DNA of 64,000 bases, from positions 496,001-560,000 of the forward strand of contig QPGO01000017.1 of the NCBI GenBank assembly GCA_008632985.1, written 5' to 3'. This document shows positions 20,681 through 44,219 of the stretch, piece by piece. Under the pieces are notes generated by a model, which worked only from the letters and a program-made list of their open reading frames with translations, was not told the DNA's origin and ran no database searches. This stretch comes from Psammoneis japonica. Taxonomy: Eukaryota. The translations under genes were made by a program, and so were the position numbers. The number at the start of each line of letters is the position of its first letter. Position 1 is the stretch's first letter.

Positions 20681-20840
20681 TTGCAGACTGCCGGCATCAG
20701 GGACAATCTAACAGACATCCAGGACAGATGACAATCATGCACCAGATGAGAAAGAAAGTGAGATCATTGGATCTCTCAATGCTGTCTGTGCCAGTCTGTC
20801 CAACACAGGGGAGTGTGCTCCCCATCTTGGATGTCTGTCA
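20681..20840 (-). repeat. 3' LTR of Copia #1
   Basis: Aligns with 27527-27696; adjacent polypurine tract on minus strand. Confidence 0.88.
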
Positions 20841-23800
20841 CCCTCCCCTGATGAGCAATGCAACAGTCATCAAGAAAGAAAGAAAACATCCAAAAAGAAA
20901 AAGGACCAGAACAGCAGAACAAAGTGAGGACCAAAAAAATGCCCAAGACTTGATCTGCAAACACAGCAACAATCAACAGCAGTGTCCCATCAAGCGGTGG
21001 GCATGGCGGGAATGAAACATCCAACCCACAGCCTTGGTCAGTGCATCGGCAGGGTCAATGACACCCGGAATGTGTCAAGTGACAATTTTGCCTGCCTCGC
21101 ACCAGTCTTGGATCACAAAATGTTGAGTGTCAATGTGGTGGGAATGCTCCACAGGCACCTTGTCATTGATCATCTGGGTGGCAGAAGAGCTGTCAATGTG
21201 CAAGGGAGTGGGACTGCATTGAGGAAAACCAAGCTCTTTGAGTGCCATCCTAAGATGCAAAGTTTGCTTGGCACCAGCAACAGCTGCAAGAAATTCAGCT
21301 TTTGCAGAACTGGTGGCTGCAATTGTCTGGGTTTGACAATGGCAATCAATCACAGCACCAGCAAGAACATGTGTGCATCCAGCAGCAGAACACTGGCACC
21401 AAAGTTCATTGGCATGGGCCACATCAACAAAGTCAAGAAGTTGGAAATGGCTGTCAGCACAAGGAAAATCAGGAAGAGTTGGATCTGATTCCAGCAACTC
21501 AAAAGTGCAAGGAGGAAGACCTGGATCACATTTTGTCTTCTTGTGTGTCAAGCCCCAATGCTTGGTGCAGTGCAAGCACTTGGCCATGCACTGGAGTGAA
21601 GTACAATGACTCTTATGGGGAGCCTTGGAAAACTTCAACAGAGTCACAACAAGACAGCCAACATCCAATCAACAACACGTGCAGGCAAAAATAAATTCAC
21701 CCAGAACAGACCAACAGGACAAGCCTTGAGATTCTGCCAGTGCGTCATGTTCTGGGGCACCTTCACTGGGGCCTTCAGCAGTGTGCAACTCTGCAATGCT
21801 TTCAACTGGAATGGGTGCAGCCTTGAAGTCACTGTCAGATTCATCAGCAGCAGGTGCATCCCATCCATGAGTTTTGAAGACTCAGTCTAAGTAACTCGCA
21901 CAGTTGATTGTGACAGAATCATCACTCTGGATCACATCAGTGCAATTGAACTCTACAACCAAGCCAAGGTGCTTGAAGGGGGGGGATTCCTCATTCTCCA
22001 TCTGAAGTTCCTTGCCAACATGATCATAGATTGCTTTGGCAATGTCCTCCAAAGGACAAGCAAGGGCAAAATCATTGACCTGATGGAGGAGCAGCACCTT
22101 GGCACCATTGCACGTGCCAGAGCAGATGCACTTGTCATGAGTGGCATTACGGAAAAGAAGCTTTGCATCCATTGGGATTGAATTGACGCACTTCTCCCAC
22201 AGGACGCCTGCTTCAGGATGACCTTGGGGAGCACACTTGAGAGGAAGAACACAGTGACGTGGGACCTTCTTCCCAAAGCGTTCCTCATGCCATGCAGCCC
22301 ATGCATCATCAACAGCAGCACAGACTGGTGTGCAGATGGACCAGGGGAGTGAGCATGGGCATCACGGGCATTGCCGCCAAAAATCCAACAGAACAAGGCA
22401 GCACCAAGTGCAAAAAACATCTTTTCAACAGACCGATCAACACAAGACAAGTGCGTGGAGGTCAGCTCATGTAAAGCCGGCAGAGCAGACTTGGGACCAT
22501 TTCAACACTGCCTTGAACGTCATTGACCATCAGGTTTCACCACACAATCCCAGTGCGGATGCACAACAGCAGCACCTGGAGGTTGTGGTTGCAGAGGACC
22601 ATGCATGCCAAGTGCAAAAAATTGATCTGGCTGTCGGTGTTCACCTTCTTCCCATTCATGCCATGCGCCCAATTTCCAAAGCTTGGATCAGGCAAGTTGA
22701 TCAAGAGCAGCTTCCTCAGGGGTGAGAGAGCAGGAGCCAATGGCATTGAGATGTGCATGAAAGACTTCCGTCGGGATGGACTCTTCCAAAAAATCACACA
22801 TCTTCAAGGGTGAGTTCTGGCACATGTGAATCATCCTCCATGGAATCAGGGTCAAATGGCTCCGCTTCCTCAAATGCTTCATTGAGAGTGTGTGAGTCCA
22901 AACGTCTTTCCAGAGCAAAGGCAATCTCAAAAGTTGATGTGTCATTGTGAAAGACATGTGACAGTGCAGCTTCAGCATCCTTTGGTGTAAACACCTCATG
23001 CTTGTTGATGGAGACAACACAGGCACCCACAAGCTTGTTGCGAGTGGCACAAAGTGAGGAGAACAAAGAAGCTGCAGGACCACGGTGCCTGATCTTGGAT
23101 GCACAGACGCAATCCATCAAAGCACACTGAGAGAAACCAAATCCACAAGCAGGTTCTGTGGGAGGATGTTTCATGGTGCAAGCAACAGTCTTGGCAAAAG
23201 GATTTGATGATGAGGTTAACATGGGAATGGTTGTTTCCTGTGTTTCAGCCAGAAGAAATGGCTGACCATTTTCCACTTGTTGCAAATGGGTGGCATTCGG
23301 AGGGAGTTGATCTGACAACAAGTCATTCATGCCCTCATCACACTGGATGTGCTTGGCTGTTTTTACTTTGTCAGTTGCAGGATCCCACCAAAGGACATTC
23401 TTCAAGGTGTTCGGCAGATGACCAAGGAATGCACCTTTCTTGGAGTTTGTCTTGAATGTGGTGGAGTGAGCAGAAGATTGCTTGGCCCATGCTTGGCATC
23501 CAAAAGTCTTGAGAGCAGCAAAGTCCTCAATCTTCCCAGCAGCAAGGGTGATGGGGGATGCATCTTGATCTTTTGCAGGAGCAGCATTCTTGATGCAGAG
23601 GCAATGGTAAAAAGCACAAGGCCAGAATCGAGTCGGGAGATTGGCGCAAATTAAAATTGCATGAATTGCGTTCTCAACAATCAAATGTGAGCGTTCCACA
23701 GGGCCACATTGGTTGGACGCACCAGCACCAGAAGGACACATGTCATGCTGGAATTCTTGGTCAAAGAGGTTGTGCACTTTGGGCTTTTTGTACAATTCTC

Positions 23801-26800
23801 CACCTTGATCCACAAATGCATGTTTGTCATGACAATTTGGCAAGTGTTGATCCAGGAATTGGCAAAGCCACTTGAGAGGACTGGCTTTGGAGACTCGTGC
23901 AACACCATGGAGCATGCGTGTTTTGTTGTCATGCACAGTGATCCAACACGTTTCACCATTAAAACCAAGACAGTCAGACTTGCGGTCATCGTTCTTGGAA
24001 GCCTGACCAGCAAAAGTAAAGTCCACAGCAAGGCCTTGGCATTGTTGGGTCACCTTTCAGGTCATGTCAGGTCCTGCAGGCATCTTGACTTGCTTGGCCT
24101 GAACACACGTTGGACAAACATCAAGGGCTGGGTTGGCATGCCTGAACTTGGGGACCCCTTTGACATGCTTGTGAGCATTGCACAAGCAATGATTGCTGGG
24201 ATGTCCAAGACGGTGGTGCCAGCGGAGGAGACATTCAGTCTCAACTTTGAGAGAGCAGACCAGAATGGGAGCAGGCAACAGCGGCAAGACTTGTGGGACA
24301 AAATTGAATTGCATGGAGAACAACTCAGCATCTGCCAAGAGAGGTTCTGTTGGAGCTTGTTGAACATTGATGCAGAAGACGGCACACAGGCATGCATCAT
24401 CAATGTTGTCAACTGAGGTTGAGCCAGGCATTGACGGTGCTTGACAGGTGGCAGTCTCAGACAGAGGAATTAGAGGAAGTGTAAAAACCTTTCCATGTCA
24501 GAGAATGACATGGACAACAACCTCTTGGGCATCAGTTGAAGCGGCACACATGCAAGCGCCATTGGCGTGGGTCTTCTTGAGGAGCTCGGAACAAATGGCC
24601 TGAGGCTTAAAACCAGAAGCCCATGCAAAATCGCGTTCATCAATCAAAGTGGACCTCAGACTTGGGTGGCAAAAGGCGCGCACAAGAAGAAAGCCATCAG
24701 CATTCTCTGCTGGTGCTTGCAAGCAACCACAGCCATGAGGAACCATGTCAGATCCTTCAGCAGGGAGCATCTTCAAAGGACAGGGATTGTCCGGTCCAAA
24801 TGGGGTGCAAGCATGAAGAAGGGTCTTGTCGCCTGCACAGGAGACCCAAGCACCAGTGTCAATTTGTGCACGGTGTGTCGTTGAGTCACGGAGAGCACAT
24901 GATTGACAGGGACAATGGGGGCACTCAAGGTTTCAAAGGTTGCAGGTGATTCCATGGGAGGAAAAATTGGAGAGATGCGCGCTGCACTCAATGGCAATGG
25001 GTGTTGACTGGTGGTCATGTCAAGGCACTCAAAGCCATGATCTTGATTGGTGGGCATGGGGACATTGGAGTCTTGTGCAGGGGATTCATGAAGAATGGGT
25101 TCCCTCCCCTGATTGATGCTGTCAGGGTCATCATCTGGAATCATCTGGACATCCAGAGTGCTGGCCTTCATCAAAGTTGAAAGAAGGTTTGCAAATGACA
25201 CATGTGAAAGAGGTTGTTCAGCGGAAGGCAACAAGTCAAGCAGATCCTCTTTCCTGGACACCCTGCTTGCATGGGTTGATTTTGGATTGGGGAGGGATGG
25301 GCGGCATTGTTTGTCCGAACGTGACAATGGCCCCAGGAAAAATCCTTCTTGGGCTTCTCAGACTTGAGTGCATCTTGAGCATGCTGATCACGTTGAAGGA
25401 ATTGGGAGAATCGGATGAGGTGGGTGCGTGGGCACTCAGCATCACTCAACACAGGGCACTCGTGGAATGAGTGACCATCACCACAGACGACACAAGGACA
25501 GGTCTGTGCTGTGGCAGGTGATGACTTAATCCTGTGGACACAAGCCTTGTAAATGCCATGCAATGCCTGCACTTCATCATCCGGAGGACCATCCACAGCA
25601 GCAAGTTCATTCACAAAGCACTCCACAGCATCCACGGGTGCTTCTGCAGGAGGGGGATTGGTTTCTGTCAGAGTCTCCTCTACAACTGAGGGTGGATCAG
25701 ATGGCTCATCTTCAGGTGGGAAGTCGAGACCTCGAACAGGAGCTGCAAGAGAAGGATTGGCCGGGTTCTGATTGTGGAGATGACGTGGAGGGTGCTTGGG
25801 AGCATTCTTGATGCAAAGAGCAGGACCATCCAGTTCCTTGAGGATTGTGCCAATGGTCTCAACAATCTTCTTCTGAGAGAACTTGTGTTGCTTGTTCTTG
25901 TCTTCTCAAGCATCCACTGTTTTACAGTGCAGACACTCTCCACAGCAGGCATTGCCAAGAAAAATGTCTGGCTCACCAGGGTCATCAAGAGAAGCATTGA
26001 CATTGGAGACAATCACCTGTGGCTGGAGGAAGTCCCTGAAGAGAGCACAGTGGCTAAGAATCGTGAGATTGTTTTGGTGTGGGCAGCTCTTGATCAATTC
26101 ACACTGACACTTTGTCCAAATTGGCAGGACATCAAAAAGGATCATCTTGATGGCAGCGCATCCATCTCCATGGCACTGGCAAACAATGTCAGGATGCTTG
26201 GAGTTGGCTGGAAAAATCCCAACCTTCTGGATGCACTGGAAGACAGTCAACTTCATCTGATCAAGTGGCACTCGCATCTGAAGTTGCAGGTCATCTGCAG
26301 GATCATTGCCACTTGTGAAGCCCCAATTTCCACCATCCTTGATAAAACACCATAGAGGGTGCATGTGTGTGCCACAAGCCGAGGCTTGTTGGGTTGCAGC
26401 AGCACACCATGCATGGATTCCTTGAGGAGAGATGTCATCACAAGTGAGGGAATCACAAAGAAAAGACTTGGGATCCCAGTCAGTGCAATGGATGAAGAGA
26501 GAACCATCAGTGAGCATGAGACGCTCTGCACCATCTTCGTGACAAAGATTTCCAGACTTGTGGGGTGCTGGTGACTTCCCCAACACTGCTTTGCCTGCAT
26601 CCTTGCATTGATGGCAAGCTGGCACATCCTTTGGAAGTCCTTTTGGATCAAAGGTGCACATGGCACTGGTTGCTGTCAAGGCAGAAGCCATGGCAGTGGC
26701 AGTCATGGCAGGAGACGGTGCAGAAGGAGCAGTCCTCGTCAATGCATTGGCCATGGCTTGCTCAAACTGTTTTGGACCAGGCAAATGAGCGGCCAAGGCT

Positions 26801-27526
26801 TTTGCAAAGTCTTCAGGAGCAGCGCCGGTGGCAGTGGCCGATGGAGTTGCAGGACTTGGGGCAGGCGTTGAGTTTGGGTGTGGAGTGTCAGAGATGTCAT
26901 CCCAACAATCACAACACTGAAAACCAGGACGAAAATGGAGACAAACAGTCCCGACATTCCGAGATTGCTTTGATCATGGTCTTCTAAAGATTGGCAAGAT
27001 TCAAGCAAATCTGAGAATCATGAGGAGCAGCCACAAAGAGAGAAGCCTTGTCTGTGAGTGGTCCAATGCACACAAGATCTTTGGGGTCAGCGCAGCTTGG
27101 GGAATGATGAGGTCCTGAACAATCTTGTGACGGAGAGTTACAAGAGCATTGCTCTTGAGGCCTTGAGGAGCAAATCCATCCAGAAGATCTTCAGGAGCAG
27201 GGATCTTGTCCAAATGAAGGGCATTCAGGAAACAGTGTGCATCGGGTGAGCGATCATGTGGGTTGAACTCAACCAGTGTTGACTTGATCATGGTCAAATC
27301 AAAACGGTGTTTTGGGTTTTGTTCACCATGGCTGCACTGGAAAAAATTAAATTCCTGCACAGAGCTCTTGCATGTGTTCTATGGTGGTCATTTGATCACA
27401 AATCGAGAGGCGAAGAAATGGCTGTGACAATGATGATTTCAACGAAGAAAAATTGCCAAACCACACGGTGGGCGTTGCGGTGAAGCAGCACAGAGGAAGA
27501 CAAACAGCGCACTGCTGCTCACAACC

Positions 27527-27696
27527 TTGCAAACTGCCGGCATCAGGGACAATCTAACAGACATCTAGGACAGATGACAATCATGTGCTAGATGAGAAAG
27601 AAAGTGAGCAAAAGAGAGATCATCAGATCTCTCAATGCTGTCTGTGCCAGTCTGTCCGACACAGGGGAGTGTGCTCCCCGTCTCGGATGTCTGCCA
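27527..27696 (-). repeat. 5' LTR of Copia #1
   Basis: Aligns with 20681-20840, with a 10-bp insertion. Confidence 0.88.
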
Positions 27697-28732
27697 CCAA
27701 AAACATCAACCTTGTTGTTCCTGGGCATGTTGATCACCTTGCATCACCACATCCATGCCTTTTCCTTGACCACCAACTGAGGACTGCATTCCATGACCCT
27801 GCACATTGGCATCACTCTGCTGGTCGCACGGCGGGCAAGGCAAAACTTCAGCAGAGTGGTGGCGATGGCTGTGCTTGGAGGGCATGCAAAGAAGCATTTG
27901 GCCTCAAAGCAACTCTCTAACTCTCTTTTGAATGTGAGCATTTCTCATTTTTGGAAATTGATGAGACCTCTTCTGCTGCAAGCTCTTGTCTGTTTTGTGA
28001 TCGAGAGAACATGGGTGGTTCTTCATGAGACCGGGCAAGAAGGCAGCCCATCAAACAATGTGGGGAGCAGTGTTTGGAACACAGGGCCAAGCCTGTGAAC
28101 AAAGAAAAGGGCATGTGTGAAGTTTGCTCTGGCAAAGGCAGCAAGTGTGTCAAACACAAAATTTGAGAAGGGTCTTTTGAGCGGCCGAAACTTTCTTGAA
28201 GACGCGCATCTGGTGATGGTGTTTTTGACTGGAGCAACAGCACTCTTGAAAATGAAAAGTCAGCCGTGAGCCATGAGACTCAACAGCATGGAATGCAAAT
28301 TGTGGAGCTGTGCAGACATGGCAACCCCATGTTTGATGACCTTCTCTTTCAAGAGAAACTCTGGGAAGCAAGAGGGACAAACAAAAAATGCACACACAGC
28401 AGGAGACGATGGCTGCAGAGTGGCTGGCTCACCTCACTCATCTCATTCAACAGTGCTCAAAATGAGCAGGATCAACAATGGGCAATTGAAATGAATGAGC
28501 TAGATGGGTTGGCGAGTGAAGTGGAAAAATGGGACAGCGAGCTGGCCCAAATCCATGTCTGAGCACAACAACATGAAAACGCAACGTGTCTGTCCTGGCA
28601 TGCTTCGAGTGCATCATCATCATGGTGTTTTCCAGCAAAACAGGAGAATTGACAACTGACACCACTTTGCAAATGGCACTCTACAGTGAGCCCAGCTGGT
28701 GAAGCAGCTCTGCCACACCAGCAGAGAGAGAA

Positions 28733-29008
28733 TGACAGGATTTGAACAGGATTTGGGTGCGCGCGAAATGTCGCACGCTGTTCAGTTTACCGCACACAGT
28801 TTTGTGTGCTTTAGTTCCGCGTGCTCGTGCGCGATGTAGTTTGCTTTCGAGCCACAAGGCTCACAAGAACAATGACAGTGGCCCGATTGTGTCGACTTGC
28901 ACGTCTTTCGGCTCCTGTGACGGTCTCTGAGCGGAGACTCATCTGCCATTTAGACAGCAGTGAGGAGTTGTTGTTTGAGTTCTTGCCATTTGCCTTCAAT
29001 TTCTGTCA
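28733..29008 (+). repeat. 5' LTR of Copia #2
   Basis: 276 bp, TG...CA ends, colinear with 35531-35806. Confidence 0.95.
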
Positions 29009-29942
29009 GGTTGACAGTCTTGCTCATTGTCAACCCATTGAGCAACCGCCATCGTCGTTGTTGATTTACCGACGATGCTGTTTCAATTCTGCGTGGACCT
29101 CCGTGTGTGTTCTACATGCATCGGCAAGTCTGCACGCATTCAACACCACCAGGCATCGGCAGGAATTTAACGTCACCGTCAAGTCTCCTTGCCGCTGCAT
29201 GTCTGGATTGATTGCACTGCCTTTTGTTGCTGGAAACACACATTCAACGGTTGTGTCCAAGTCTGTCCTTGATCCTCATCCCTTGACGTGCCCATTCAAT
29301 GGTCAACGGTCAAGAACCCCACATGTGCAAGGATCTTCGTCGCTGAAGACATGTGTGTGTCTACATCTTCACGGCCAAGAACTTGTGCCCACTCTTTGGA
29401 CTGCGGCTTTGCTGCCACTCTACAAGCACGCCAAGTCCATTGCACCTGATCTGCCCCAGACTGCTGGTGCTCTGCAGTTCCACCAGGTCCACAAGGACAA
29501 CTGTGAGAGCAAGCAGCCGTGATTGCAGCCTGCGTTGGGGCGAGGGTGTTTTTCCCGCGTTTGTTCGTTCGTCGCCTGACGCCTGCGTCAACTGGCCAGC
29601 CTGATCGGGAAATCCAACCGACATGAAATGAGAACGGTTCGGGGGTCTTGTCTGCCTCTAGTCAGCTTGCCTGCAGGGGTTTACAACCCGCCACTCCGCT
29701 CGCAAGCAACCCAAAGCGCCGCTGGCTGCAGGTTCGGACGTGCCGGCACAACTCCACGGACCGGATGGGAAGTTTAGCACTTGACAACGAACGGGACAGC
29801 ATGGCCCGGCGACTTCTGATTTTAAGATAGTTCAAGATTTCAAGTCAAGTCTGTTTCAAGTCAAGTCCATTCTCACCCAAGTTTCAGGTCTGCCTTCGCG
29901 TCCCAACCAGAATCGCTTGTTCTGGCACCGCTTTTGCCTGTC

Positions 29943-32900
29943 ATGGTTCTCACTCGTCAGCAACAAACCGATGGTTTTGAGCACGTTGTTGGAACCGTGC
30001 TTGCCCAAGGTGCTGGAAGCCCTCTTCGTTTGGCTTTGACCCATGACGGCACGGACTCGCACCAAGAACTGTTCACGTTCATGCCGTCCCAAATCGACTC
30101 ACTTGAGTGCGACAACGGCACTGATGTGGTCCCTTTGCCACGCGGTTGTAAGAACATGTTAGCAGCTCTGGTCAGTCTGTACATTGTCAAAGCACACAAA
30201 GGTCTCGACGTTGCCAATGACTCCTCGTTGTTCGCGCATGAGGAGTTCCTTGCCTGCCGCCTCAGCCCTGACTGCATGTCTTCTGTGTCCGTCGGCAGCT
30301 CGCCCCTCGCACCTCCGCATGTCACCAACCCGACCAAGGCACGCGACCCTGTGCGAGACTTCAAGCGAGGCATCAAGCGTGACCCCACTGCTTTCACGGC
30401 TCTCAAATCCGACAAGCAGTGGCACACTTGGCACACCTCACTTGTGGCACAAGCCCATGCCCAAGACGTCGAGTGCGTTCTAGACTCGTCGTACAAACCG
30501 ACCAGCCCCGAAGACAAACTGCTCTTTGCTGAACAGCAAAAGTGCATGTTTGCCGTCTTCGAACGCATCCTTCTCACCGACAAGGGCAAAAACACCCAGA
30601 CCGTCTGCCGCGCCTTGTCCGAGCATGCGCTCGCCTCCACCCGCGCTTCCATCAAGTCCTCCACCTTGCTCACGCACCTTGCCACCGCATGTCTTGGTGA
30701 TGGCACTTGGAAAGGTCCGACCCACGGGTTCATCCTTCATTGGCAAGATCAGTTGCGCAAGCACGAGGCACTCATCCCGGCCAGTGACCACTTCTCTGAA
30801 GGGCAGAAGCGCGTCATGCTCGAGAATGCCATGCATCCTGTCGAGGAACTCCGCGCCGTCAAGAACCAAGCTGATCAGCATCGCACACAGAGTGGCAAGA
30901 GCCTCACATGTGATCAACATTGTGGCTTGCTCCTCTCCGCGGCGGCTCAATGTGACAGCACGTTTCAACCCAAGACGACACCTCGAGCTCCCCGACGTGC
31001 CACACACGCACACAACGTCCACTCCGAGGAACCATCCAATGATGTGTTCTACGACATCGACAGCAACATTGACGTCCTTCAGGCCAACGCTGCCTGCACC
31101 CGCGGTCCCAGCCTCACCGGTGACCAATGGAATCGTCTCCCTCCCGACCACCAATGGATTTGGGATTTGTTGCCCCATTCCTCCAAGGCGATCATCCTTG
31201 AGCATTCTCGTCCGCCTCCCTGCAACCCGCGTGCCAGCAACTGCCATGAGTCCGTTGCGGTCAACCTTCACGACCAACGACTTGGGAGTGACGGTGATGT
31301 CAACTTGTCCAACACGACTCCTGCTGACTTTGGTGACCCTGCTCCAAATGTGGGTGCCGCTTCAAACAATCCCATTCTGGCACACCTCACCAAGTGCAAG
31401 CCACTGCCACCCGGTGATCTGCAGCGCCTGTTGTCTCCCAACCAAGCCCCCAATGCCAGTCGACCAGGCCCATCCGCCGCTCCCTCTACCTCGCCTGCTC
31501 CCGCAGATGACATGGAACTCAACGGCCGCACTTGCCACCGCGTCAACAACCACAATGTCATTTGCTCTGCCTCCGCTCATCGCTCCACATGCACTGGTGC
31601 TCTAGTCGATCGTGGAGCCAACGGCAGCATTGCTGGCGACAACGTTCGCGTCATTGCACGCACCTCTTGCCAAGTCGACGTTCAGGGCATTGACGACCAT
31701 CAATTGGTGGACATCCCCATTGTCACCGCTGGCGCCATCATTGAGACACAGCGTGGTCCCGTCATTGCCATCCTCCATCAGTGCGCGCACACAGGAAAGG
31801 GCAAGACCATTCATTCCTGTGGCCAACTCGAATGGCACAAACATGATGTCAACGATCGATCTGTCAAGGTGCCCAATGGCTTGCAACGTGTCGCCACCCC
31901 TGATGGCTGTGTCACCCCAATTGACATCAAGGGCGGCCTGCCTCATGTTGCCATGTGTCCCCACACTGACGCCGAATGGGACACCCTGCCCCATGTCATC
32001 CTTGCCGGTGATGACACTTGGGATCCTTCCATCCTCGATCACTCTCTCACTGACAACAACCAGCGGCACGACACGATCTCTGACCTGCAGGACGATCCCA
32101 CTGCCAACCTGTTTGACGAATGCGGCAACTGCTGTCACCGTGTTGTTGTCAACAAGGCCATCATGTCCGCCTCCTTGTCTGCCGATCACGCGTCCGTCCT
32201 CGATGACTGCCTCATTCCGAATGACGACGTGTTCTACAAGTGTCATCCACATGCGATTGACCGCAAGGACGACGACACACCGCCCCGGAGCGCACTGTGC
32301 AGCCCAAGGACCCCCCCTGCGAGTCTCTTCGGCCTCACTTTGGTTTCCAACCTGCCGATGCAGTTCGTCGTACTTTCGACTGCACCGCGCAGTGCGCCCG
32401 CATGCCTGCTGGCACACACCTTGGGAAGGCCCACAAATCGCCCAACCCCGCCCTTAATGTGCACCGCCGCAACGAGCCTGTCGCCACTGACACCGTTCAT
32501 GCTGACACCCCGGCCATCGACTCTGGTTGCACCAGCGCCCAACTGTTTGTTGGCACCGAGTCTACCGTCACTGATGTCTGCGGCACCAAAACAGACAAAG
32601 AGTTTGTCAACACACTCAAGGATCAGATCCTTGAGTGTGGTGCTCCATCCAAACTCATTGGCGACTGTGCTCAAGTTGAGATCAGCAACAAGGTGCTCGG
32701 GATCCTGCGAGCCCTCTTTGTCTCCAGCTGGCAAAGTGAGCCTCACCAGCAACACCAAAACTTTGCCGAACGTCAACACCAGACCGTGAAGCGCATGGCG
32801 AACACAGTCATGGACCGTTTCGGTTTGCCCGCCCACACATGGCTGCTCGCGCTCATGTGCGTGTGTTTCATCCTCAACCATGCAGCCTCCCCACGTCTCC

Positions 32901-35520
32901 ACTGGCGCACGCCCCTCGAGACTCTCACTGGCTCCACCCCGGACATCAGCCCATTGCTCCGCTTTCACTGGTGGGAACCCGTGTGCTGCCACCTCGATGA
33001 CTCCGATTGGCTGTCCGAATCCCGTGAGTTGCGTGGACGCTTTGTTGGCATTGCTGAGCACGTCGGCCACCAGATGACCTTCAAGATTCTCTCTGACGAC
33101 ACTCAGAAGATCCTCTGCTGGTCCAACGTACGATCCGCTGCCACCAATCCTGCCGCTTGAAACCTGCGTCTTGATCCTCCTGATGGGGAGCCACCTGAAC
33201 CCATCATCAAATCTCGCCATGATGACAACCCCGTCGATTCACCCAATGGGGAGATCAGGACACCCAAGATGCCAGTTTTCGACCCGCCAGACATCATCGG
33301 ACGCACCTTCCTCATGCAGCCACAAGAGGACGGACAATGCCACAGAGCTCGCATCGTCAAGGCCGTTGAAGACCACAAATGGAAAGTGAACGGCAACCCC
33401 GAGCTCACTGAGTTCGTCTGCTCTGTCAACAACGACGAATGCGAGGAAGTCCTGGCATGCAACGGCATCATGAATCACATTGAGCAAGAAGACGAAGACA
33501 CTGCTGTTTGGAAATTTCGACGCATTGTGTCACACGAAGGACCTCTGAAGCCTCATGACCCAACCTGGAAAGGCTCAAGCTACAACATCATGCTTGAATG
33601 GGAAAGTGGGGAGATCACGTCCAAGCCTCTTGCCATCATCGCCAAGGACGACCCTGTCACCTGTGCCATCTGTGCACGAGAGAACGGACTTCTCGACACT
33701 GATGGCTGGAAGCGGTTCCACACCATCGCGAGACGCCAGAAGAAGCCATTTCGCATGGCCAACCAAGCCAAGCTTTGCTCCTTCCGCACTGCACCTCGCT
33801 GCAAGTGCGGATGCGAAGTCCCCCAGAACTGCAAACATGCCATGTCACTGGACGAACGCAACGGCAACCGCAAATGGGGAGACGCAACTAATCTTGAGAT
33901 GGACCAACTCGATGAGTGCAAAGTCTTTCATGACTGCGGGCCCTCCGAGTCTTCCACTCCTCCTGCGGGACACAAGAAGATCCGAGTGCACCTGGTGCAC
34001 GACGTGAAACACGACGGCCGCCACAAGGCCTGACTCTTAGCCGATGGGCACCTCACAGATGCACCCATCAACAGTGTCCACTCCAGAGCAGTCTCCCTCC
34101 GTGGCCTTCGGCTGATGATTTTCCTGGCCAAACTCAACGAGTTGGAGACATGGGCTGCCGACATTGGCAATGCCTGCCTTGAAGCCACCAACAAGGAGAA
34201 ACTGCACATCGTGGCTGGACCCGAATTTGGCAAACTCGAAGGCCACATTCTTGTCATCCACAAGGCCCTGTGTGGACTGCGCAGCTCCGGCCTCCGCTGG
34301 CACAAGCGCTTTGCCGACTGCCTGCGAGCTGAAGGTTTCTTCCCCTGTCACACCAAACCCGACATTTGGATGTGCAGGAACGGCGACCACTGCGAACACA
34401 TCGCCGTTCATGTGGATGACGACCTTGCCATTGCCATGAAGGACCCTCAATCTTTTGTCGACACTCTCACAGAAAAGTGCAAGTTCAAGCTCAAGGGTGC
34501 GGGACCGATTGAGTTCCATCTGGGCTGTGACTTTTCCCGGGATCCTGACGGCACCTTGTGCCTGTCCCCGCGCAAGTGCATTGAACGCATGGCCGACAGC
34601 TGCACATGACTTTTTGGGGAGAAACCTGCCACCAACATCCTGTCACCTCTGGAGAAGGGTGACCACCCCGAACTGGACACTTCCGAACTGCTTGGGCCCA
34701 ATGGCATTCAACAGTTCCAGTCTCTTGTTGGTTCACTCCAATGGGCAGTGTCCCTTGGTCTAGTTGACATTGCCATGGCCGTCATGTCACTCTCTAGTTT
34801 CTGAGCTGCGCCCCGTCAAGGCCACTTGGATCATGCCAAATGCGTCTGTGGGTGCCTCTCCAAGATGTGACACGGTGCTCTCCGCGTTCGCACGGAAGAG
34901 CCCGACCATTGGATCTCCCTGCTCCGGCCCATGAATGGATGCATTCCATGTGCGGTGAAGCAGAAGAGATGATCCCGAAGGACGCTCCACCGCCCCTTGG
35001 CAAGTTCGTCACTGCCACCCACTGCGTCGATGCAAACTTGTGCCATTGCATGCTCACCGGATGCTCTGTCATGGGAATGCTCCACTTCCTCAACAAATTC
35101 CTGGCTGATTGGTTCTCCAAGAAGCAAGCCACCGTGGAGACTGCGACCTGCGGGTCTGAATTTGTTGCCGCAAGGACTTGTGTCGAGCAGATTGTCGACC
35201 TGCGCATCACCCTGCGCCACCTCGGCGTCCCGATCCGTGACGTCAGTTGCATGTTTGGTGACAACAAGTCGGTTGTAGACAGTGCCACCATCCCGCACTC
35301 CAAGCCACACAAGCGACACACCGCACTGTCGTTCCACCGTGTGCGTGAGGCAATTGCCTCTGGTCACCTTGAGCTCCACTTCATCGAAGGCTCCCGCAAC
35401 CCTGCTGACATTCTCAGCAAGCATTGGGGTCACTCCCAAATCTGGGACCTTCTCCGCCCCCTCATGTTCTGGAACTTCATTCCATCCGAAGTCGAATCTG
35501 TTTCTGTGACTCCTCAAGCA
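29943..35520 (+). pseudogene. gag-pol polyprotein of Copia #2, disrupted
   Basis: ORF pieces 29934-32789, 32297-33160, 33269-34033, 34115-34609, 34840-35583; frameshifts plus TGA stops at inferred CGA(Arg) positions (34031, 34607, 34802); Tyr nearly absent. Confidence 0.92.
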
Positions 35521-35530
35521 AACTGGGGAG

Positions 35531-35806
35531 TGACAGGATTTGAACAGGATTTGGGTGCACGCGAAATGTCGCGCGCTGTTTAGCCCACTGCGCACAGTTT
35601 TGTGTGCTTCAGTTCCGCACGCTCGCACGCGATGTAGTTTGCTTTCGAGCCACAAGGCTCACAAGAATGACAACAGTGGCCCGATCACACCAACTTGCAC
35701 GTCTTTCAGCTCCTGTGACGGTCTCTGAGCGGAGACTCATCTGCTGTTTAGACAGCAGCAAGGAGTTGTTGTTTGAATTCTTGCCATTTGCCTTCAATTT
35801 CTGTCA
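35531..35806 (+). repeat. 3' LTR of Copia #2
   Basis: 276 bp, colinear with 28733-29008. Confidence 0.95.
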
Positions 35807-36307
35807 GAGAGGGGGGGCCTCCAGCATTCACATGGGATGTGTGTGAGGTGTGAGTGATGAGTGACGACATCATCAAACACAATGCCGCAGGTTCCCAATG
35901 GGGGAGGGCAGGGGCTGTGTTCATGTTCATGGGAAGATGCACATGTGTGGCATTAAAAGCAAGTGACGAATGTTGTGCTCAGTGCACAATGTCTCATGTT
36001 TGAGGATGCTTCTGCTGCTGTCAGCATTTGTTGATGTGATGAATTTAAAGTCAATGAAGACACAAATGACATCAATTTGTCAGGTGCAAAGCACAGCACA
36101 ACTGACAAATTTTCGCCAGGAGACGACTCCATCACAAAAATCGCAGAACCCAGCGTGTCTCATGCACGTTGTTCTTGTTCTCATCTTGCTCGGAATCGTT
36201 TCAAGAGCCACGAACTTCCAAATCAGACAACTGCTGTTAGCATCGTAGGCACCAACAGCAATGTGCCAGCGAGGAATGACAGAAGTGGCTGAGATTTTTG
36301 ACAGAAA

Positions 36308-39300
36308 ATGGTGGTGCTAAATTTGTTGGTGCAACCGAAACCAGGCTACACGCATCCAAAGAAACTCCAACGTATTCAAGTGGACACTTCAGAACGAGTC
36401 AAAGATGTTGTCTCTAAACTCAAGCTTGAAAAGAAAGGAACTCACTTTCATGCGAATGGAGGTGAACTTCCCTTGAATTCTTCGATTGCCTCTCACAATG
36501 TTCAAGATGGAAGTGTCCTCGAGACTTGCAACTGTCCAGTCTTGTTGGCTGTCTTACCATCGGTTCTAAAAGATTTCAACGAGGTAGAAAAACTGCCAAA
36601 ACTGACGATTGAGGAGAAGAGTCAGTTCGCCCGCTTTTGGATGATGCACTTTTGCATCCGTGGCCAAACAGATGGTCACCCAATGACATCAAGTCCCGGA
36701 TCATCTGTTTGGCAACCATCAAGAAAGTGATTCAACGCGATGGTCGATTTGAAGTGGAAGCAATTCCTCACTGTCAAGATCTGCATTCCCTCTCTGAGTT
36801 CATGAAAACTGCATGGAACCGTGTCAATGCTGCACCCACCAGTCCAGATGGAACTCCGAGATGCCGAGGTGGTCACAACACAATGGCACACATTGTCAAA
36901 CCAACTTCTCGAAACCGAAATGGACAGCCAACTGCTTGTTGGGAGTTGCTGCAAAACAAACTGGACAAATGCCATCTTGTGGCAAGTCAGCTTGGCCCCA
37001 ATGAGGATGCCATCGAAGAATTTCTCAAGCAGGATTCGGCTGGACATGGCACACCATCTGCTGCGTCTCAATCCCCTTCTAGAATGAGACGCACTGCCGG
37101 AGAAGTGGCAACGCCCAGTGCAATGCGGCCACGCCAAAAGCTGGCGATGGCTCCATCACCAGGGCGAAGGCAGTCGACATCTGTCCAGTGCATTGGGTGC
37201 ATCGCTCAAGCAGAGTGTGCATGTTTGGCAGGCTGCCCCTTTCACAAGCAATTTTGTTGTGCCATGTGCTTTGTTGGCAATCACCCTCCCTTCCAACGCA
37301 ATCACGAAAATGTCCCACTCACCGATCGGAGAGTCAAACCACTCTTGAAGGAACAAAATCGCAGACCCTGCATCCCAGATTGTGCCTCGGGGGCACTCTC
37401 CATTCTACAAATTTTGCACCAATGTTCGAATCGCATGGACACAAACTTGCGGGAGTGCAGTCTGGCAGAAAGTCATCTCAAAAAGCTTGCTCAAGAAAAG
37501 TGTCGATCAAATCTCTACGACAGTCAGGCCCGTGGACGAACCGCCTTTGCGTGCGTGGAATCTCTGACAGACAAAGGATTTCTCCGCAAAGAACTCATCC
37601 CTGGATCGCGTGAAGCCAAATTCAGTCTGCTGCCTCCAGGAGAAACCATGGGGAAACAATGCTGTGAATTCGACCAAGTGCCACAGCGCATGCTTTTTAC
37701 TCAACCAATGCAGACAGAAAGGAATCAAGTCTGCAGTGGCCAGCATCATGCAATTCGATTGATCATCGACAACCGTGAAGATGCCACAGACGAGGACGTT
37801 TGGACTCAATGCATGTGTTTGACTACAAATTTTTAAAATGATCAATGAGACGACACTCGAAATTTAAAAAAAATCTCTGTTCACATGAGAGACAAATTTT
37901 CAACATGCAGCAACTTAAATTTATAAATTTTTGTCATTGTGTGTGTTTGCAATCATTGTCTAAAATGTGTGTGCTGTTCACAGAGATGCAAAACCAACAG
38001 TGCCGTTTTACACAAACTGCAGAGTTGAAGGGACGAACACATTTTGAATGTGACAGTGTCCCTTGTGTTAAAATTTTAAATTTTTTTTGAAATGAAAGAG
38101 ACGACATTTGACCATCCTTCGCGATGAAGCAGACTCGTTTCGTCGCACACACTTTGTTTCTCATAAATTTCGTTGCACAACGAATCCCCTTTTTCTTTCT
38201 CACCACCTGCCGGTTGGTGGCACTCCTTTGTTCAAGGACTGAAAGCAAAGATGGTTAGAAAAGTCAAGGGCAATTTGGTGGTTGAGGCTGCAGTCGTTCT
38301 GAGTTCTTGCTTTCAGGTGAAATCCGTTGTTGAGTTGGTCGAAAACAAACATAAAACTGCACACGAATGTTGTTGCTGATTGAGCCACTGTCTTGCTGTT
38401 TGGTTGTAAGGTGTCCCAAATCTGATGTCTTCTTCTAAAGTTGTCCCAAGAGCTGCTGGCTTGGGCATTGGGCTGGCTTTGTCACTGCTTTGGTGGTTCA
38501 CAACTACAGTCACGCTGTGTTCTTGCCTTTGAGTGAGATCCGTTGTGAAAACTGGTTGGAAACAACTGCGGAACTTCAAAGATTTTAAGAAATGGGTGTG
38601 CATGGCATTCCATGGCACGGCGACGCTCCAAGGCCCCGATGGCCAGGTGAACAACAACCAGATTTAGTGTTTGAGAAACCGAAAGCACCCTTCAAGTTCA
38701 AACCAGAAAATGTGAAAAGATGTGGATTGCTTTCTAAAAAGTGGAAGACAGAATCTGTTGACAGATTGGAAGCATCGGAAGCTGGTGCTCATGTGTCATG
38801 GGACAGACACAGCAAACCGCACTGTCAAATTGCTCGTTGTGATCATGGGAAACTTGACAAACTGGCGAAAGAACAAGGTGTTCCTGCAAACAGAATGAAG
38901 GGAACGTACATTGACCCTGGCAAGTTTGCACACATTGACCATGAAAGTGATTTTTGGCAAGATTGTTTTGCACCTCATTTGTCCAAGTTGGATGTCAAGG
39001 GATTGGTTGATGACATGTTGAAGTCTCATTCGGAAGACACTGGTGACCGCCTCAGGGGCAATGTCACTGCAGGCGGTGGATGTGCTTCACAAAACATGCG
39101 GTTGGGTGAAGAAGGAGCAACAGAACCTCAAGTCACTAAGGGGCTTGGGAAAGAGCACGCAGAAACAATGTGTTGCATGTCTGACATGCTTTGTGATTGG
39201 GTCGAGACAAGAACATTTCAAGCGAACAACAAGAGTTGCCAGCTGGGGAATGTCTCTTTGTGATTCAAAATGAAAATGGTGAGGAAAAAGTGCCACCCAC

Positions 39301-42131
39301 AGTTGTGGAACGAAAGTCTTGGAGTGATTTGGCCGATTCGGTCAGTGATTGCGGGCGCAGAAAAAAGCGACTTGACTGCGTTCGCATCGGGGGAGAAAGT
39401 TCATGCGAAGGTGGTTGCCAACTCTGTCGAATGAAACACAGTGGATGCAAAAGAATTTTGTTTGTCATTGAGGGTGCGCGTTGTCTTCAACGTGACAACG
39501 ACCAAAAATGTGATGCTGTGGAGCGTTGCCAATGCTGCAAGGAACTGGCGCAGCATCATGGATCAGGACTCGTTCAAGAAACTCTCGAAGGCACGCTTCG
39601 AACCTTGCAAATCAATCACAACTGCTTGGTTTTGTTTGCAAGAGGATGCAATGAAACGATCGATGTGCTCTTCATCATGCGCGAAATGCTGGCCGCGTCA
39701 ACCGATCGAGAGCCTTCACTGTCCTGTGATCAATGTTGTGCGAATGCTCGACGGCGCATTGTTCCAGAAAGTGACCCCTGTCACCACCCGCCTCTCATGA
39801 GAGGAAAGCTTCAGATTCACCAAGCGGAGAGTTTCCTCAGAAGAATGTGCCTTGGTCAACTTCGTGAATTCCAAAATGCAATTCACCACAACACTGATTC
39901 TTTGCCAGCCCCCAATCACAGCATCAACGAGGAAATTATCGAGATTGATGAAGAAACGCCCCAGAAACGCCCAAGGACAAATTTGTCAAGTGCAAAATCT
40001 GTTCAAGAAGTCACACTCTGTGACGACACCTCAAGCAATGACAGTGAGAGCGTCGTGGATCTGTTGAACGACTCCCAGGATGAGATTGAACTTTTGGAAG
40101 ATGGCGGGTGGAGCAAAGCCAAAGCGGCAGTGAAGAATCCGCTACAGAGATTTCAGGAGTGACGCCAGCAAGGTCTGGAAAGCAGCGTGCCAAGATCTCT
40201 TAGAAGCAGAAAGTCAACAGTTTGAACAAAGTGTTGAGAAGTGGCTTGAACAGCTGGGTTGGCACGAAGATGACGAGTGCCCTGTTGTGCCCAGAAACAT
40301 GATTTTGTTTTGGTGTGTTCATTTGCAACTGAGTGGAAATGCCATTGTTCAAATGGTTCGAACCTCAGCAGAGCTGGAAAGTTTCTAGGCAAAGTGGGGG
40401 TGCGCATCCAATGATGCGCTGTCAACAACACCCAGAGTCACGCAACGAGTTGGGTTGCTGGAACAAAGGCCAAGCGCAGCGAATCCCCCAACGAATCGAA
40501 CACCTGCGGCTGCCGCAAGTGGACGCACAGGCATTGAATCACATGGAACAGCTCAACGCACTTCTGCAACTCCAGCTCGACAGGCTCTTGACTTCCAAGT
40601 GTCCCAGAGCTGCATGATCTGTGAAATGGAAATGAGGGGACACGATCAATTTGAGACATCCTGCCATCATGTCTTTCATCTAGAATGCACCGTGAGTTGG
40701 GTTGAGGGGACTGCTGCTCGAAAATGTCCTCGCTGCAGCGCTGATGGAATTGGTCTCCCCAAACGAGCAAGGCCACCTGCAGCATGCATGCAGACAAAAG
40801 GTCATTTTTGTCACGCCCTTTGTGACATTTAAAGGCTGCAACACGTCGCCGTGATGCATCAACTCTTGTCAGTGGCTGCACATTGCACTCCTCCCCATGT
40901 GTCACGCGTCCATGCGGCTCTTTACCAACGTGCACTGAAAAACGGTTTTGGCAGAACAGTGTGGGCATGTGCGAAGGAACACGCAGAACTGCACAGAGTT
41001 TTGCGCGTTCGACAGTGATCAACGTTGCTGCAGACAACTCCCACTCAGGGTTTCGAACCCCTGGCCTCCTGCCTGATGGTTGCGATGAACCACTCCGCTG
41101 TGAATTCACAATGCAGCATGCATGCAAACAAAAGGTTGTTTTTGTCACGCCCTTTGTGACATTTAAAGGCTGTAACACGTCGCCGTGGTGCATTGACTCT
41201 TGCCAGCAGCTGTGCATTGCACACCACAAATTCCCAGGGGACAAGGCCCAATTGGACAGAGATCGGCACTGGCACAGGCAACTCCTTCCAAAGCATCGAA
41301 GCCTTCCATTCCGTGCAGGGAGAACGACTGCGCTCAAGTGGCCCAAGAGGCCCGTCTTCATCGCTTTGAACAGTCTGGTGAGATGCGCTGCAATTCTGGA
41401 GCAGCAACGGATCGAACCAGTGGCTCGCCTCGACGTGCCTCGAAACGAACCTGGAAATGTCCAAAGCACACCTTCGAAAATGGCATCATCATGGACACAT
41501 GTGAAATGTGTGAACAGCCAAAGCCAAATGCCGCTGTTTGGAGATGCGAAGAGTGCACTTTTGAAAACCTTGCAAGCACCTCAAACTGCAGCATGTGCAC
41601 TGCTGTCAATCCATTCTTCATCTGCCCCGAAACGGTTGACTCTCAAACATCATTTGCCACAGTTCCAGTGGCGAGAGGTTTGAATGAAGATCCGGTTGCC
41701 TCCGATTGTGGAAGAAACATTGCCCCGACAGTGCCACCAGCAATCTCATCAGGTCAAGGTCCAATGCCTCTGAGGAAAGTTGCCTGTGGCGCGCGCAGAC
41801 GTCAGGGCCACAATCGAACATCGGCGACCGCCGAAAACTGCCCTGCATTCAATCTGCATTCAATCATCCTAGCGAAATTGCCAGGCACCAGCAAAAACGA
41901 GCTCAAGCAGAGGAGCAAGCCAGACAGAAATGTGCAGATGCAACCCGATTTGCCACCGAAACAAATGATGCCCTAGAACGAAACAATGCTCTTCAAATGG
42001 AAATGCAGCGAATGTTGCAGCATTCGATCAGGCAAGACGAAGAGCTCAAGAGGATGCAGGCGGAAGAAGTCAAACGAAAGCAGAAAGCCGCTGAACAAGC
42101 AGAAAAGCGCGCACGATGTCTTGCAGATTGA
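36308..42131 (+). pseudogene. MUS81-like (ERCC4/XPF family) structure-specific endonuclease pseudogene with extra domains, split by an insertion
   Basis: Ubiquitin-like N-terminus; Mus81 winged-helix-like segment (RPCIPDCASGALSILQIL..LAQEKC..TAFACVESLTDKGFL); RLIIDNRE; ERCC4 core ELPAGE..VVERKSWSDLADSVSDCG..FVIEG; RING (CMICE..CHHVFHLECTVSW..CPRC); two RanBP2 zinc fingers (WKCPKHTFEN..CEMC, WRCEECTFEN..CSMC); several frameshifts. Confidence 0.75.
37795..39200. mobile_element. Insertion interrupting the ERCC4 domain (probable transposon fragment with AT-rich end)
   Basis: Unrelated sequence between the DNRE motif (~37770) and ELPAGE (~39230); A/T-run-rich segment 37800-38200 and foreign ORF fragment 38592-39263; no TIR/TSD identified. 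Confidence 0.45.
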
Positions 42132-42149
42132 AGCCGCCCACTGGGGCCC

Positions 42150-43270: not shown

Positions 43271-43308
43271 TTGATTTTGGCCGCTGGGTGCTTCTGGACG
43301 TGTTTCGA

Positions 43309-44128: not shown

Positions 44129-44219
44129 GCTTTTCGATCAACTTGAAACTCATCCCACAAAGAAAAAGAGAGAAAAGGAAAAAGATACACGAGATTCAAC
44201 AGCGTACAGTAGAACGAAA

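Follow-up and report, generated by a model that had tools for sequence, protein, structure and literature searches.

We find that Copia #2, a dead Ty1/copia-type long terminal repeat (LTR) retrotransposon of the diatom Psammoneis japonica, has been stripped of the dinucleotide TpA, and that the element and the domains of DNA around it have very probably undergone TpA-specific A:T→G:C hypermutation that acts on DNA after insertion and separately from the decay of CpG. Copia #2 lies in a 64,000-nucleotide stretch of GenBank assembly GCA_008632985.1 (contig QPGO01000017.1, positions 496,001 to 560,000, forward strand), which we analyzed at full length and call the window. Comparison of LTRs, homologous proteins, pseudogenes and related metagenome elements demonstrates the direction of the change, its timing after insertion, its occurrence on both strands, its domain limits, its sequence-context rule and its independence from CpG decay. 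An account of the window made earlier from its letters alone (the sequence-only reading) had proposed that TpA and CpG loss are two separable clocks, of which TpA loss is the faster, and that elements are disabled by missense change.

Directed loss of TpA and tyrosine in Copia #2

The Copia #2 LTRs are 89% identical, carry TG...CA ends and are flanked by a target-site duplication in which four of five bases match (GAGAA/GAGAG). We compared the coding span 29943–35487 with 43 colinear full-length polyproteins of 1800–2000 amino acids from public contigs of ~7 kb, and the reverse transcriptase (RT) with 120 RT fragments from public data. The element is composed as follows.

28733–35806, + strand: Copia #2, dead Ty1/copia-type LTR retrotransposon, recognized by its LTR pair, RVT_2 and 43 homologous polyproteins
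28733–29008, + strand: 5′ LTR, 276 bp, TG...CA, with GAGAA directly before it
29943–32225, + strand: N-terminal polyprotein segment, placed by position on the gag/protease side, read in frame 0, from tblastn of the 43 homologues; 761 codons with 3 Tyr, 43 His and 27 Cys
32297–34909, + strand: middle polyprotein segment with the RT (RVT_2), read in frame 2; TGA at 33158, 34031, 34607, 34802 and 34868; HVDD at 34409–34420
34912–35487, + strand: C-terminal polyprotein segment, placed by position on the RNase H side, read in frame 1 beyond a frameshift; 192 codons with 0 Tyr
35531–35806, + strand: 3′ LTR, 276 bp, with GAGAG directly after it

The Pfam profile RVT_2 matches the RT with an E-value of 2.7e-13 in 34034–34606 and of 1.4e-16 in the read-through frame. 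Pfam rve, protease and RNase H domains were found in no Copia #2 piece and in neither of two intact homologues, P0242 and P0253, and a Pfam search of 20 further open reading frames (ORFs) from TpA-depleted blocks returned no integrase, protease or RNase H. Colinearity with the ~1900-amino-acid polyproteins alone suggests the order of domains around the RT; the "integrase" and "RNase H" pieces of the sequence-only reading are positional labels with no Pfam domain behind either.

Across 28730–35807 (7078 bp), Copia #2 keeps 36 TpA dinucleotides, an observed/expected ratio (O/E) of 0.105, and stays CpG-rich as first read, with 436 CpG at O/E 0.80 and a GC content of 55.9%. CA (O/E 1.43) and TG (O/E 1.62) are both raised, and both strands have therefore been affected. 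The 1824 homologue-aligned codons hold 4 tyrosines, 102 histidines and 74 cysteines, against 69.7 tyrosines expected at the homologues' frequency of 3.8%. At the 55 columns with a tyrosine consensus among the full-length homologues, Copia #2 reads cysteine at 30 (TGY), histidine at 18 (CAY), phenylalanine at 4, tryptophan at 1 and tyrosine at 2. Every one of the ten RT columns that carry tyrosine in at least 55% of the 120 homologues has changed, four to CAY and six to TGY, and the conversion of YVDD to HVDD that had been noticed near 34408 is confirmed at 34409–34420, where codon 34409–34411 is CAT and 86% of the 120 homologues carry tyrosine. Over 958 conserved columns, 772 are the same in Copia #2 and 186 are changed: 60 by a single TA→TG/CA event (41 TG, 19 CA), 33 by CG→TG/CA, 15 by other transitions and 78 by changes that are not single transitions. 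The TA→TG/CA set includes cross-codon changes such as Thr→Ala and Ile→Val following a T.

A→G and T→C changes are unable to create stop codons, and Copia #2 was therefore killed by missense change, in keeping with the earlier proposal: 48 of the 55 conserved tyrosines became cysteine or histidine, and YVDD became HVDD. The stops in the element come instead from CpG decay, CGA→TGA. This origin, proposed for three of them, is well supported at 34031 and 34802, each of which is arginine in 43/43 homologues, and plausible at 34607, where homologues carry arginine in 17/43 and glutamine in 14/43; two further in-frame TGA codons stand at 33158 and 34868. With its five TGA stops and two frameshifts (one between 32225 and 32297, one at ~34910), the true frame contradicts the use of long ORFs as a hint of intactness. 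In the 951-amino-acid gag-protease ORF of the sequence-only reading, the 3′ part from ~32297 is off the true frame. Counted per stop-to-stop ORF, tyrosines number 4 in 987 amino acids (29826–32786), 1 in 290 amino acids (33161–34030), 0 in the 191-amino-acid RT and 0 in 261 amino acids (34798–35580), which agrees with the earlier counts for the gag-protease ORF and the RNase H-side piece but gives the "integrase" ORF one tyrosine rather than none. Loss of TAA and TAG was considered as the sole cause of the long off-frame ORFs and rejected: these codons make up 48 of 342 stop trinucleotides and TGA is up, but total stop density falls too little, from ~68 to 48 per kb.

TpA was erased after insertion

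Reverse transcription makes the two LTRs of one element identical at integration. Paired pyrimidine–purine (YR) columns of the Copia #2 LTRs read TG/TG at 23, CA/CA at 16, CG/CG at 13 and TA/TA at 2, and the discordant columns comprise 8 with CG against TG or CA, 3 with TA against CA, and 7 doublets with TG against CA. Such a doublet arises only where one ancestral CG or TA has decayed in each LTR, to TG in one and to CA in the other. The CpG loss per LTR, c = 0.235, predicts 0.62 doublets (P of at least 7 = 4e-6), and maximum likelihood places 16.0 ancestral TpA at insertion, where composition predicts 16.0, with a TpA loss per LTR of 0.785 (support 0.57–0.91). These LTRs show that TpA was erased in Copia #2 after insertion.

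Columns outside YR differ at 9/141 positions in Copia #2 and at 7/91 in the second copia element of the window, Copia #1. The TpA hazard in the Copia #2 LTRs is ~48 times neutral divergence and ~5.7 times the CpG hazard. As a control, six LTR pairs of related metagenome elements, 92–99.6% identical, keep 3–56 TA/TA columns and show 0–1 doublets. TpA and CpG loss are thus separable in Copia #2 and TpA is the faster, at 0.785 against 0.235 lost per LTR. The idea of clocks fits poorly: Copia #1 and Copia #2 are alike in neutral LTR divergence, yet their CpG O/E values are 0.27 and 0.80, so CpG retention may reflect methylation history or native content, not age.

Other copies of the Copia #2 family

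Public sequencing data covering the window come from a single study, which sequenced one sample in three runs; no RNA run is listed among them. In run X1, summed contig depth over Copia #2 is 49,000–156,000, compared with ~65 for single-copy DNA, and the family therefore has roughly 800–2000 copies at a likeness of at least 90%. Over 7 kb of the element, 11,355 contigs align, mostly 90–99% alike, and the variable places, sorted by change, include 275 transitions (A>G 67, T>C 89, C>T 59, G>A 60) and 35 transversions. Comparisons with the family majority were drawn from 40 of the 330 variable places, rather than from a derived family consensus; among these 40 places, the majority reads TA where Copia #2 has TG at 29803 and 34213. 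Four contigs of other copies in the same genome carry TAT at the YVDD codon (loose end at 34421).

The copies also speak to whether the family was TpA-poor before it amplified, either natively TA-free or founded by a master copy that was erased and then mobilized in trans, which we hold to be very unlikely. That view gains from two of the 40 places, 30762/3 and 33244/5, at which ~93–100% of family depth reads TG and Copia #2 reads CA, and from the 36 listed differences inside Copia #2, of which 12 set TG or CA against a family CG and only 2 set TG against a family TA. TG is near-uniform at the two places, not part of a mixture, and some erasure may therefore have preceded amplification, or subfamily structure may exist. 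A TpA-poor founder is nonetheless difficult to reconcile with the ~16 TpA that the LTR pair implies at insertion, with its 7 discordant doublets, or with the copies that have TAT in YVDD, and these same two observations answer the concern, raised with the sequence-only reading, that the youngest copies might be natively TA-free. Moreover, an element that carries HVDD and has 4 tyrosines over 1824 codons is unable to act as an autonomous master, and 275 of the 310 variable places sorted by change are transitions, which amounts to heavy copy-to-copy transition polymorphism.

Erasure extends over whole domains

We called domains by two-state segmentation on TpA density and computed dinucleotide statistics per kb. 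TpA-depleted DNA occupies 45.9 kb, or 72% of the window, in four domains.

1769–6133, unstranded: TpA- and CpG-depleted domain, TpA O/E 0.047, CpG O/E 0.21, by segmentation
8299–10956, unstranded: TpA-depleted domain, TpA O/E 0.053, CpG O/E 0.52, by segmentation
13352–44185, unstranded: largest TpA-depleted domain, 30.8 kb, TpA O/E 0.084, with both copia elements and two pseudogenes inside
50356–58372, unstranded: TpA- and CpG-depleted domain, TpA O/E 0.059, CpG O/E 0.13, including a 190-bp satellite

The domains have TpA O/E of 0.047–0.084 and CpA and TpG O/E of 1.45–1.89, and the five gene islands are normal, with TpA O/E of 0.57–0.70 and CpG O/E of 0.90–1.15 by segmentation and 0.54–0.68 and 0.88–1.10 in the block-wise composition. 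The ~10-fold TpA deficit across 45.9 kb, together with its abrupt end at gene borders, excludes chance; domain borders sit no more than ~50–200 bp from coding sequences. CpG is uneven within the depleted DNA (O/E 0.27 in Copia #1, 0.63 in 35808–43900, 0.80 in Copia #2), and no block of the window combines low CpG with normal TpA. Copia #1, which the earlier account described, together with two blocks labeled A and D, as lacking both TA and CG, has TpA O/E 0.081 and CpG O/E 0.27, and the old blocks (2000–5900, 13600–20680 and 50500–57900) have TpA O/E 0.047–0.058 and CpG O/E 0.10–0.14.

Several kinds of DNA other than Copia #2 have been erased, and an intact gene copy serves as outgroup for one of them.

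20681–27698, − strand: Copia #1, older or different copia lineage, TpA O/E 0.081, CpG O/E 0.27; LTRs at 20681–20842 and 27527–27698
36308–42128, + strand: pseudogene of a host-type ~1350-amino-acid protein (N-terminal region + ERCC4 + RING + RanBP zinc ribbon), in 5–6 frame pieces
12445–13296, − strand: intact methyltransferase gene (Methyltransf_11), which served as the unmutated outgroup paralogue; the duplication spans 12678–13493
43306–44128, unstranded: decayed methyltransferase duplicate, straddling the domain border at ~43.93–43.97 kb

The methyltransferase duplication includes the upstream region, is ~71% identical and fixes the domain border to ~40 bp. TpA of the intact copy reads TG at 9 sites, CA at 6 and TA at 3 in the decayed copy, and the reverse, a decayed-copy TpA facing CA in the gene, occurs once. 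Left of ~43.95 kb, 18 TpA have given 15 TG/CA with 2 kept, and 35 CpG have given 20 TG/CA with 8 kept; right of the border, 11/15 CpG are kept, and of two TpA one is kept and one has changed to neither TG nor CA. Decay of TpA and decay of CpG therefore stop at one common border, which falls within the duplicated tract. The contig depth of the ERCC4/RING pseudogene (~65) marks it as single-copy, and its 15 consensus-tyrosine columns read cysteine at 6, histidine at 3, phenylalanine at 4 and tyrosine at 2; among 355 conserved columns 78 are changed, 13 by TA→TG/CA and 11 by CG→TG/CA. The 190-bp satellite (~51.4–54.8 kb, ~14–17 units, with a further 389-bp higher-order period) is without TpA and CpG, and a comparison of 14 units shows TG/CA polymorphism at 21 of 32 YR columns. 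Copia #1 matches 57/183 conserved columns of the Copia #2 family and is too diverged for its changes to be polarized. Erasure of the methyltransferase duplicate and of the single-copy pseudogene means that the process acts on DNA, on both strands and domain-wide.

This range of victims is hard to square with A-to-I editing of retrotransposon RNA by an ADAR- or ADAT-like enzyme before reverse transcription. Such editing would account for A→G change with a 5′ U/T neighbor and for retroelements as the main victims, but satellite, intergenic DNA and two non-retroelement pseudogenes are also erased, the strands are about equally affected (CA 1.43, TG 1.62) rather than the sense strand only, and the LTRs of one copy differ by doublets. 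The 3′ preference described below (T>C>G>A) is also opposite to that of ADAR, which prefers a 3′ G, and we regard RNA editing as extremely improbable.

A further question is whether sequence duplication or homology, rather than chromatin state, triggers the process, in the manner of fungal repeat-induced point mutation (RIP). Most of the erased DNA is indeed repeated (copia family, 190-bp satellite, gene duplicate), and diatom DNMT4 proteins, of unknown function, are described as related to fungal RID (PMC9998398). The ERCC4/RING pseudogene and most of 35.8–43.9 kb are, however, single-copy at a likeness of at least 90% (depth 63–70) with TpA O/E ~0.1, mutation has struck just one of the two methyltransferase copies, in a tract that stops inside the duplicate at the domain border, and the hypermutated nucleocytoplasmic large DNA virus (NCLDV) region of the alga Bigelowiella natans is reported in the preprint discussed below to be single-copy. 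These objections are weakened if selection purges mutated functional copies or if old repeats have diverged past 90%, and a homology trigger is in our judgment unlikely. Because single-copy DNA is erased and a paralogue is untouched, duplication alone is insufficient, and we favor targeting of chromatin domains over targeting by homology; chromatin state would then be the guide.

Contigs of run X1 at depth 63–69 cover the single-copy TpA-free stretch 35.8–46 kb and differ from the assembly at 7 positions over 2683 bp, 3 over 1632 bp and 3 over 4835 bp (part of a 6965-bp contig). A sequencing or assembly artefact, as would arise if a modified base of silenced DNA had been read as G or C, is scarcely credible, since these independent contigs at ~65x give the same sequence, the Tyr→His/Cys pattern recurs in proteins and contigs of many unrelated public assemblies, and the LTR and pseudogene differences act like fixed substitutions. 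It draws what support it has from the run itself, whose library type is unrecorded and which may be the assembly's own source sample; X1 argues more strongly against an error of the assembler than against one of the sequencing chemistry.

Run X2, which shares its sample with X1 and has no library kind on record, covers the gene island 44170–46000 and repeat only, not the depleted domain; if it is an RNA library, this coverage would fit transcriptional silence of the depleted domain.

TpA loss follows a 3′-neighbor rule

Flanking bases have a strong influence on how much TpA survives in the depleted DNA compared with the gene islands. Survival is 0.76 for TTAA, 0.30 for CTAA, 0.28 for CTAG, 0.20 for GTAA and 0.13 for CTAC, and at the low end 0.05 for ATAA, 0.036 for GTAC, 0.026 for ATAG, 0.016 for ATAT and 0.004 for ATAC. 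A hand calculation shows that these values fit a multiplicative model in which the risk of each adenine is set by its 3′ neighbor, T > C > G > A. Survival alone cannot separate this rule from a mirror rule on the −2 base, but the product can: the 3′-neighbor rule gives the correct product, TG or CA, in 116/164 polarized events (p = 1e-7), made up of 95/133 in a metagenome family and 21/31 at tyrosine codons. TTAA, in which both adenines are in the poorest context, is shown by these data to be almost immune. Runs tests for strand-coordinated tracts on 48 tyrosine outcomes and on six family copies gave no clustering (z −1.3 to +1.7).

We infer that the agent is a targeted enzyme, which would most simply be a TadA/ADAT-like adenine deaminase working on DNA, as has been proposed for B. 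natans. An identical trace would be left if the T of R-T-A carried a lesion that pairs with G.

TpA loss is separate from CpG decay

A plot of TpA and CpG against divergence over all LTR elements had been suggested for this question; our comparison covered the two LTR pairs of the window, one family of six copies and 80 related loci from metagenomes. Among the 80 loci, 62 have TpA O/E of at least 0.55, 9 have TpA of 0.13–0.45 with CpG of 0.60–1.02, and 6 have CpG of 0.10–0.24 with TpA of 0.49–0.64. The expectation that TpA collapses first therefore holds in Copia #2 but is not general, as these last 6/80 loci (CpG at most 0.24) show, and only lineages with the TpA process follow the order "TpA first". 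Conversion of tyrosine to histidine or cysteine is likewise graded among the 120 RT fragments, reaching 13/14 in P0170, 10/11 in P0191, 10/11 in P0182, 8/10 in P0154 and 8/11 in P0195 and amounting to 0–20% in ~104 of the 120; the choice between histidine and cysteine varies by copy.

The CpG-poor loci of near-normal TpA are L038, L020, L017, L028, L052 and L029, and CpG decay seems to go on in their hosts unaccompanied by the TpA process.

Six loci (L061, L067, L074, L076, L077 and L080) form one copia family, 85–93% identical, from two related metagenome samples. Their TpA O/E is 0.26–0.45 and their CpG O/E 0.60–0.75, and 58/69 TpA-bearing sites are polymorphic with TG or CA. A→G change has a frequency of 0.227 at TpA against 0.027–0.037 at other A (AA 0.0285), graded as TAT 0.36, TAC 0.30, TAA 0.15 and TAG 0.09, and C→T change has a frequency of 0.171 at CpG against 0.023–0.038 elsewhere. 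L061 has the least private divergence (1.1%) and keeps the most CpG (0.76) but the least TpA (0.34), whereas in L076 the share of TpA kept is 0.65 (Fisher p = 0.0035 for the two). TpA loss therefore does not track neutral time in this family, which fits episodic activity. The enzymatic burst proposed by the sequence-only reading, or more broadly an episodic mode of working, would fit both L061 and the episodic activity reported in B. natans. The six copies provide a data set for the TpA process in a second organism.

These results bear directly on whether one clock could drive both losses, TpA loss being a by-product of CpG methylation through error-prone repair of 5-methylcytosine (5mC)-deamination mismatches by a Pol eta-like polymerase, whose error motif is WA. 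The shared border in the methyltransferase duplicate and the absence of both dinucleotides from the oldest blocks would follow from such coupling. TpA is, however, at its floor while ~76% of LTR CpGs are intact, six loci of other organisms pair CpG of at most 0.24 with TpA of 0.49–0.64, and ApA is at background, with A→G of 0.0285 at AA against 0.027–0.037 at GA and CA, which misfits the WA motif. A single clock is on this evidence highly improbable.

A model and points that weigh against it

In what is very probably the right account, Copia #2 inserted with normal TpA content and its TpA was then stripped in place, 5′-TA-3′ becoming TG or CA through A→G change on either strand. The process covers whole putatively silenced or repeat domains with sharp borders beside genes, sparing gene islands, and hits LTR elements, satellite, gene duplicate and single-copy pseudogene alike. 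On the mutated strand it prefers TAT over TAC and TAC over TAG/TAA, with no strand coordination between neighboring events. CpG decay is a separate process that shares the domain borders, runs several-fold slower in Copia #2 and occurs without TpA loss in relatives from other organisms. More tentatively, and as a possibility that we would not yet call probable, some diatoms may own a natural chromatin-guided DNA adenine editor, with the chemistry of a deaminase or an equivalent one, that reads 5′-TAY-3′ in double-stranded silenced DNA and, quickly on an evolutionary scale, turns nearly all TpA of transposons, satellites and trapped genes into TpG/CpA, a RIP-like defense of opposite chemistry that would be independent of CpG methylation, shared with chlorarachniophytes and possibly old in the stramenopile–alveolate–rhizarian (SAR) lineage.

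Several points weigh against this account. The near-uniform family TG at 30762/3 and 33244/5 leaves room for earlier erasure, and the view of the family is limited to 40/330 variable places. The LTR estimate is based on 276 bp with a correspondingly wide support interval, and some events in the six-copy family were inherited in common, which makes their counts overstate independence. The strand bias between cysteine and histidine outcomes in Copia #2 (30 vs 18) is not significant (p = 0.11). The 3′ T preference also mismatches the natural tRNA substrates of ADAT, in which position 35 is G, C or A, and the confirming contigs derive from the possible source run X1.

Relation to known hypermutation systems

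The closest parallel is described in a preprint on Bigelowiella natans, which reports TpA hypermutation of integrated NCLDV and virophage DNA (Mettrop et al. 2026, bioRxiv 10.64898/2026.01.13.699255). According to this preprint, 231/302 new nuclear mutations in mutation-accumulation lines fell in two integrated viral regions, 230 of them A→G or T→C and all of these on TpA; the TpA→TpG/CpA rate was ~6e-7 per site per generation, in 11/15 lines only; TpA-poor, CpA/TpG-rich clusters elsewhere in the genome are enriched for RT and DDE domains; and adenine deamination is proposed, with an ADAT2 homologue as candidate enzyme (bioRxiv 10.64898/2026.01.13.699255). Both organisms, as far as the preprint describes its own, show A:T→G:C change only at TpA, to TpG or CpA by strand, in confined, putatively silent or foreign regions with TpA loss and CpA/TpG gain, and the B. 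natans process is not constitutive. B. natans is a rhizarian, whereas Psammoneis japonica is a diatom and thus a stramenopile. Depletion is deeper in the diatom window (O/E 0.05–0.1) than the Rho of 0.45 given for B. natans, and the victims are here LTR retrotransposons, satellite and cellular pseudogenes and there integrated viral DNA, the regions in which the preprint counts new mutations. The main text of the preprint makes no mention of diatoms, flanking context or retrotransposons (bioRxiv 10.64898/2026.01.13.699255), and the flank rule, the uncoordinated choice of strand and the comparison with CpG decay come from the diatom window and are without counterpart in that main text. Literature searches directed to hypermutation in diatoms and algae and to genome defense gave no report of TpA erasure in diatoms. 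The signature is thus the same as in B. natans, now in a diatom and near completion, and the constraints on mechanism are new.

Fungal RIP resembles the process in being an in-place transition hypermutation of repeated or foreign DNA with a dinucleotide signature and inactivation without excision. RIP is described as C→T change mainly at CpA, which creates TpA and lowers GC (PMC2621366). The window shows the contrary signature, with TpA destroyed (O/E 0.05–0.1), CpA/TpG gained (1.5–1.9) and GC raised (56% in Copia #2), and whereas RIP creates stop codons the diatom TpA process cannot. RIP also mutates both duplicates, but here the methyltransferase copy at 12.4–13.5 kb is unmutated, a difference to which selection on a functional copy could contribute.

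CpG methylation of diatom transposable elements is attributed to DNMT5a in work on Phaeodactylum (Hoguin et al. 2023, PMC9998398). Decay of 5mC acts on the same class of DNA within the same border and yields the same products, TpG/CpA, and it explains the CpG-poor blocks and the CGA→TGA stops; it cannot, however, remove TpA, is slower here (24% vs ~80% per LTR) and occurs without TpA loss in relatives from other organisms. Knisbacher and Levanon reportedly described APOBEC/ADAR editing of animal retroelements in 2015, a likeness in that deaminase-type hypermutation is fossilized in LTR elements. APOBEC/ADAR enzymes edit cDNA or RNA while the element replicates, with strand asymmetry, whereas the diatom changes are post-integration, on both strands and in non-retroelement DNA too. 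Laboratory adenine base editors derived from TadA convert A to G in DNA, and wild-type TadA reads the adenine after U in UACG. A 5′ T is accordingly a natural preference of this enzyme fold, and a diatom DNA editor of this kind is putative.

Diatoms are major primary producers, and their transposon control is known in outline only, as CpG methylation by DNMT5a. A TpA-specific, GC-raising hypermutation over 72% of the window would be a second and irreversible layer of genome defense and would strongly shape genome composition. Erasure of tyrosine codons causes domain searches to miss affected elements. With these findings, a phenomenon that a 2026 report described in a single rhizarian alga reaches the stramenopiles and includes retrotransposons, and any candidate enzyme is constrained by TAY preference, TTAA immunity, action on both strands without tracts, borders common with CpG decay and independence from copy number. 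TpA O/E combined with CpA/TpG gain provides a marker for tracing the responsible gene by phylogenetic profiling in algal genomes.

Other features of the window

An SH3_retrovirus domain (Pfam) lies within Copia #1 in 22794–24056 (−). The ERCC4/RING pseudogene is interrupted by insertions at ~37.8–39.2 kb and 40.78–41.23 kb; its protein family is rare, with 57 representative clusters in 1.8 billion proteins, and a PDB sequence search with the ERCC4 ORF gave no match. The insertion at 40778–41225 is a ~450-bp element with 114-bp direct terminal repeats (40778–40891 and 41112–41225, 88.6% identical) and a summed contig depth of ~64,000, which makes it very high-copy, and one contig links the Copia #2 LTR end (29009) to 40778.

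The genes of the window are poor in introns. The RPC5 gene at 260–1597 (−) has its best matches, at 37–58% identity, in raphid pennate diatoms (Bacillariaceae, Epithemia, Nitzschia, Cylindrotheca, Seminavis). A 2OG-Fe(II) oxygenase gene at 10866–12116 was considered as a base-modifying enzyme and dropped, as it matches only the 2OG-FeII_Oxy_3 and 2OG-FeII_Oxy profiles and no TET/JBP family. Directly downstream of this ORF lies a 57-bp tandem duplication (12211–12324), 96% identical.

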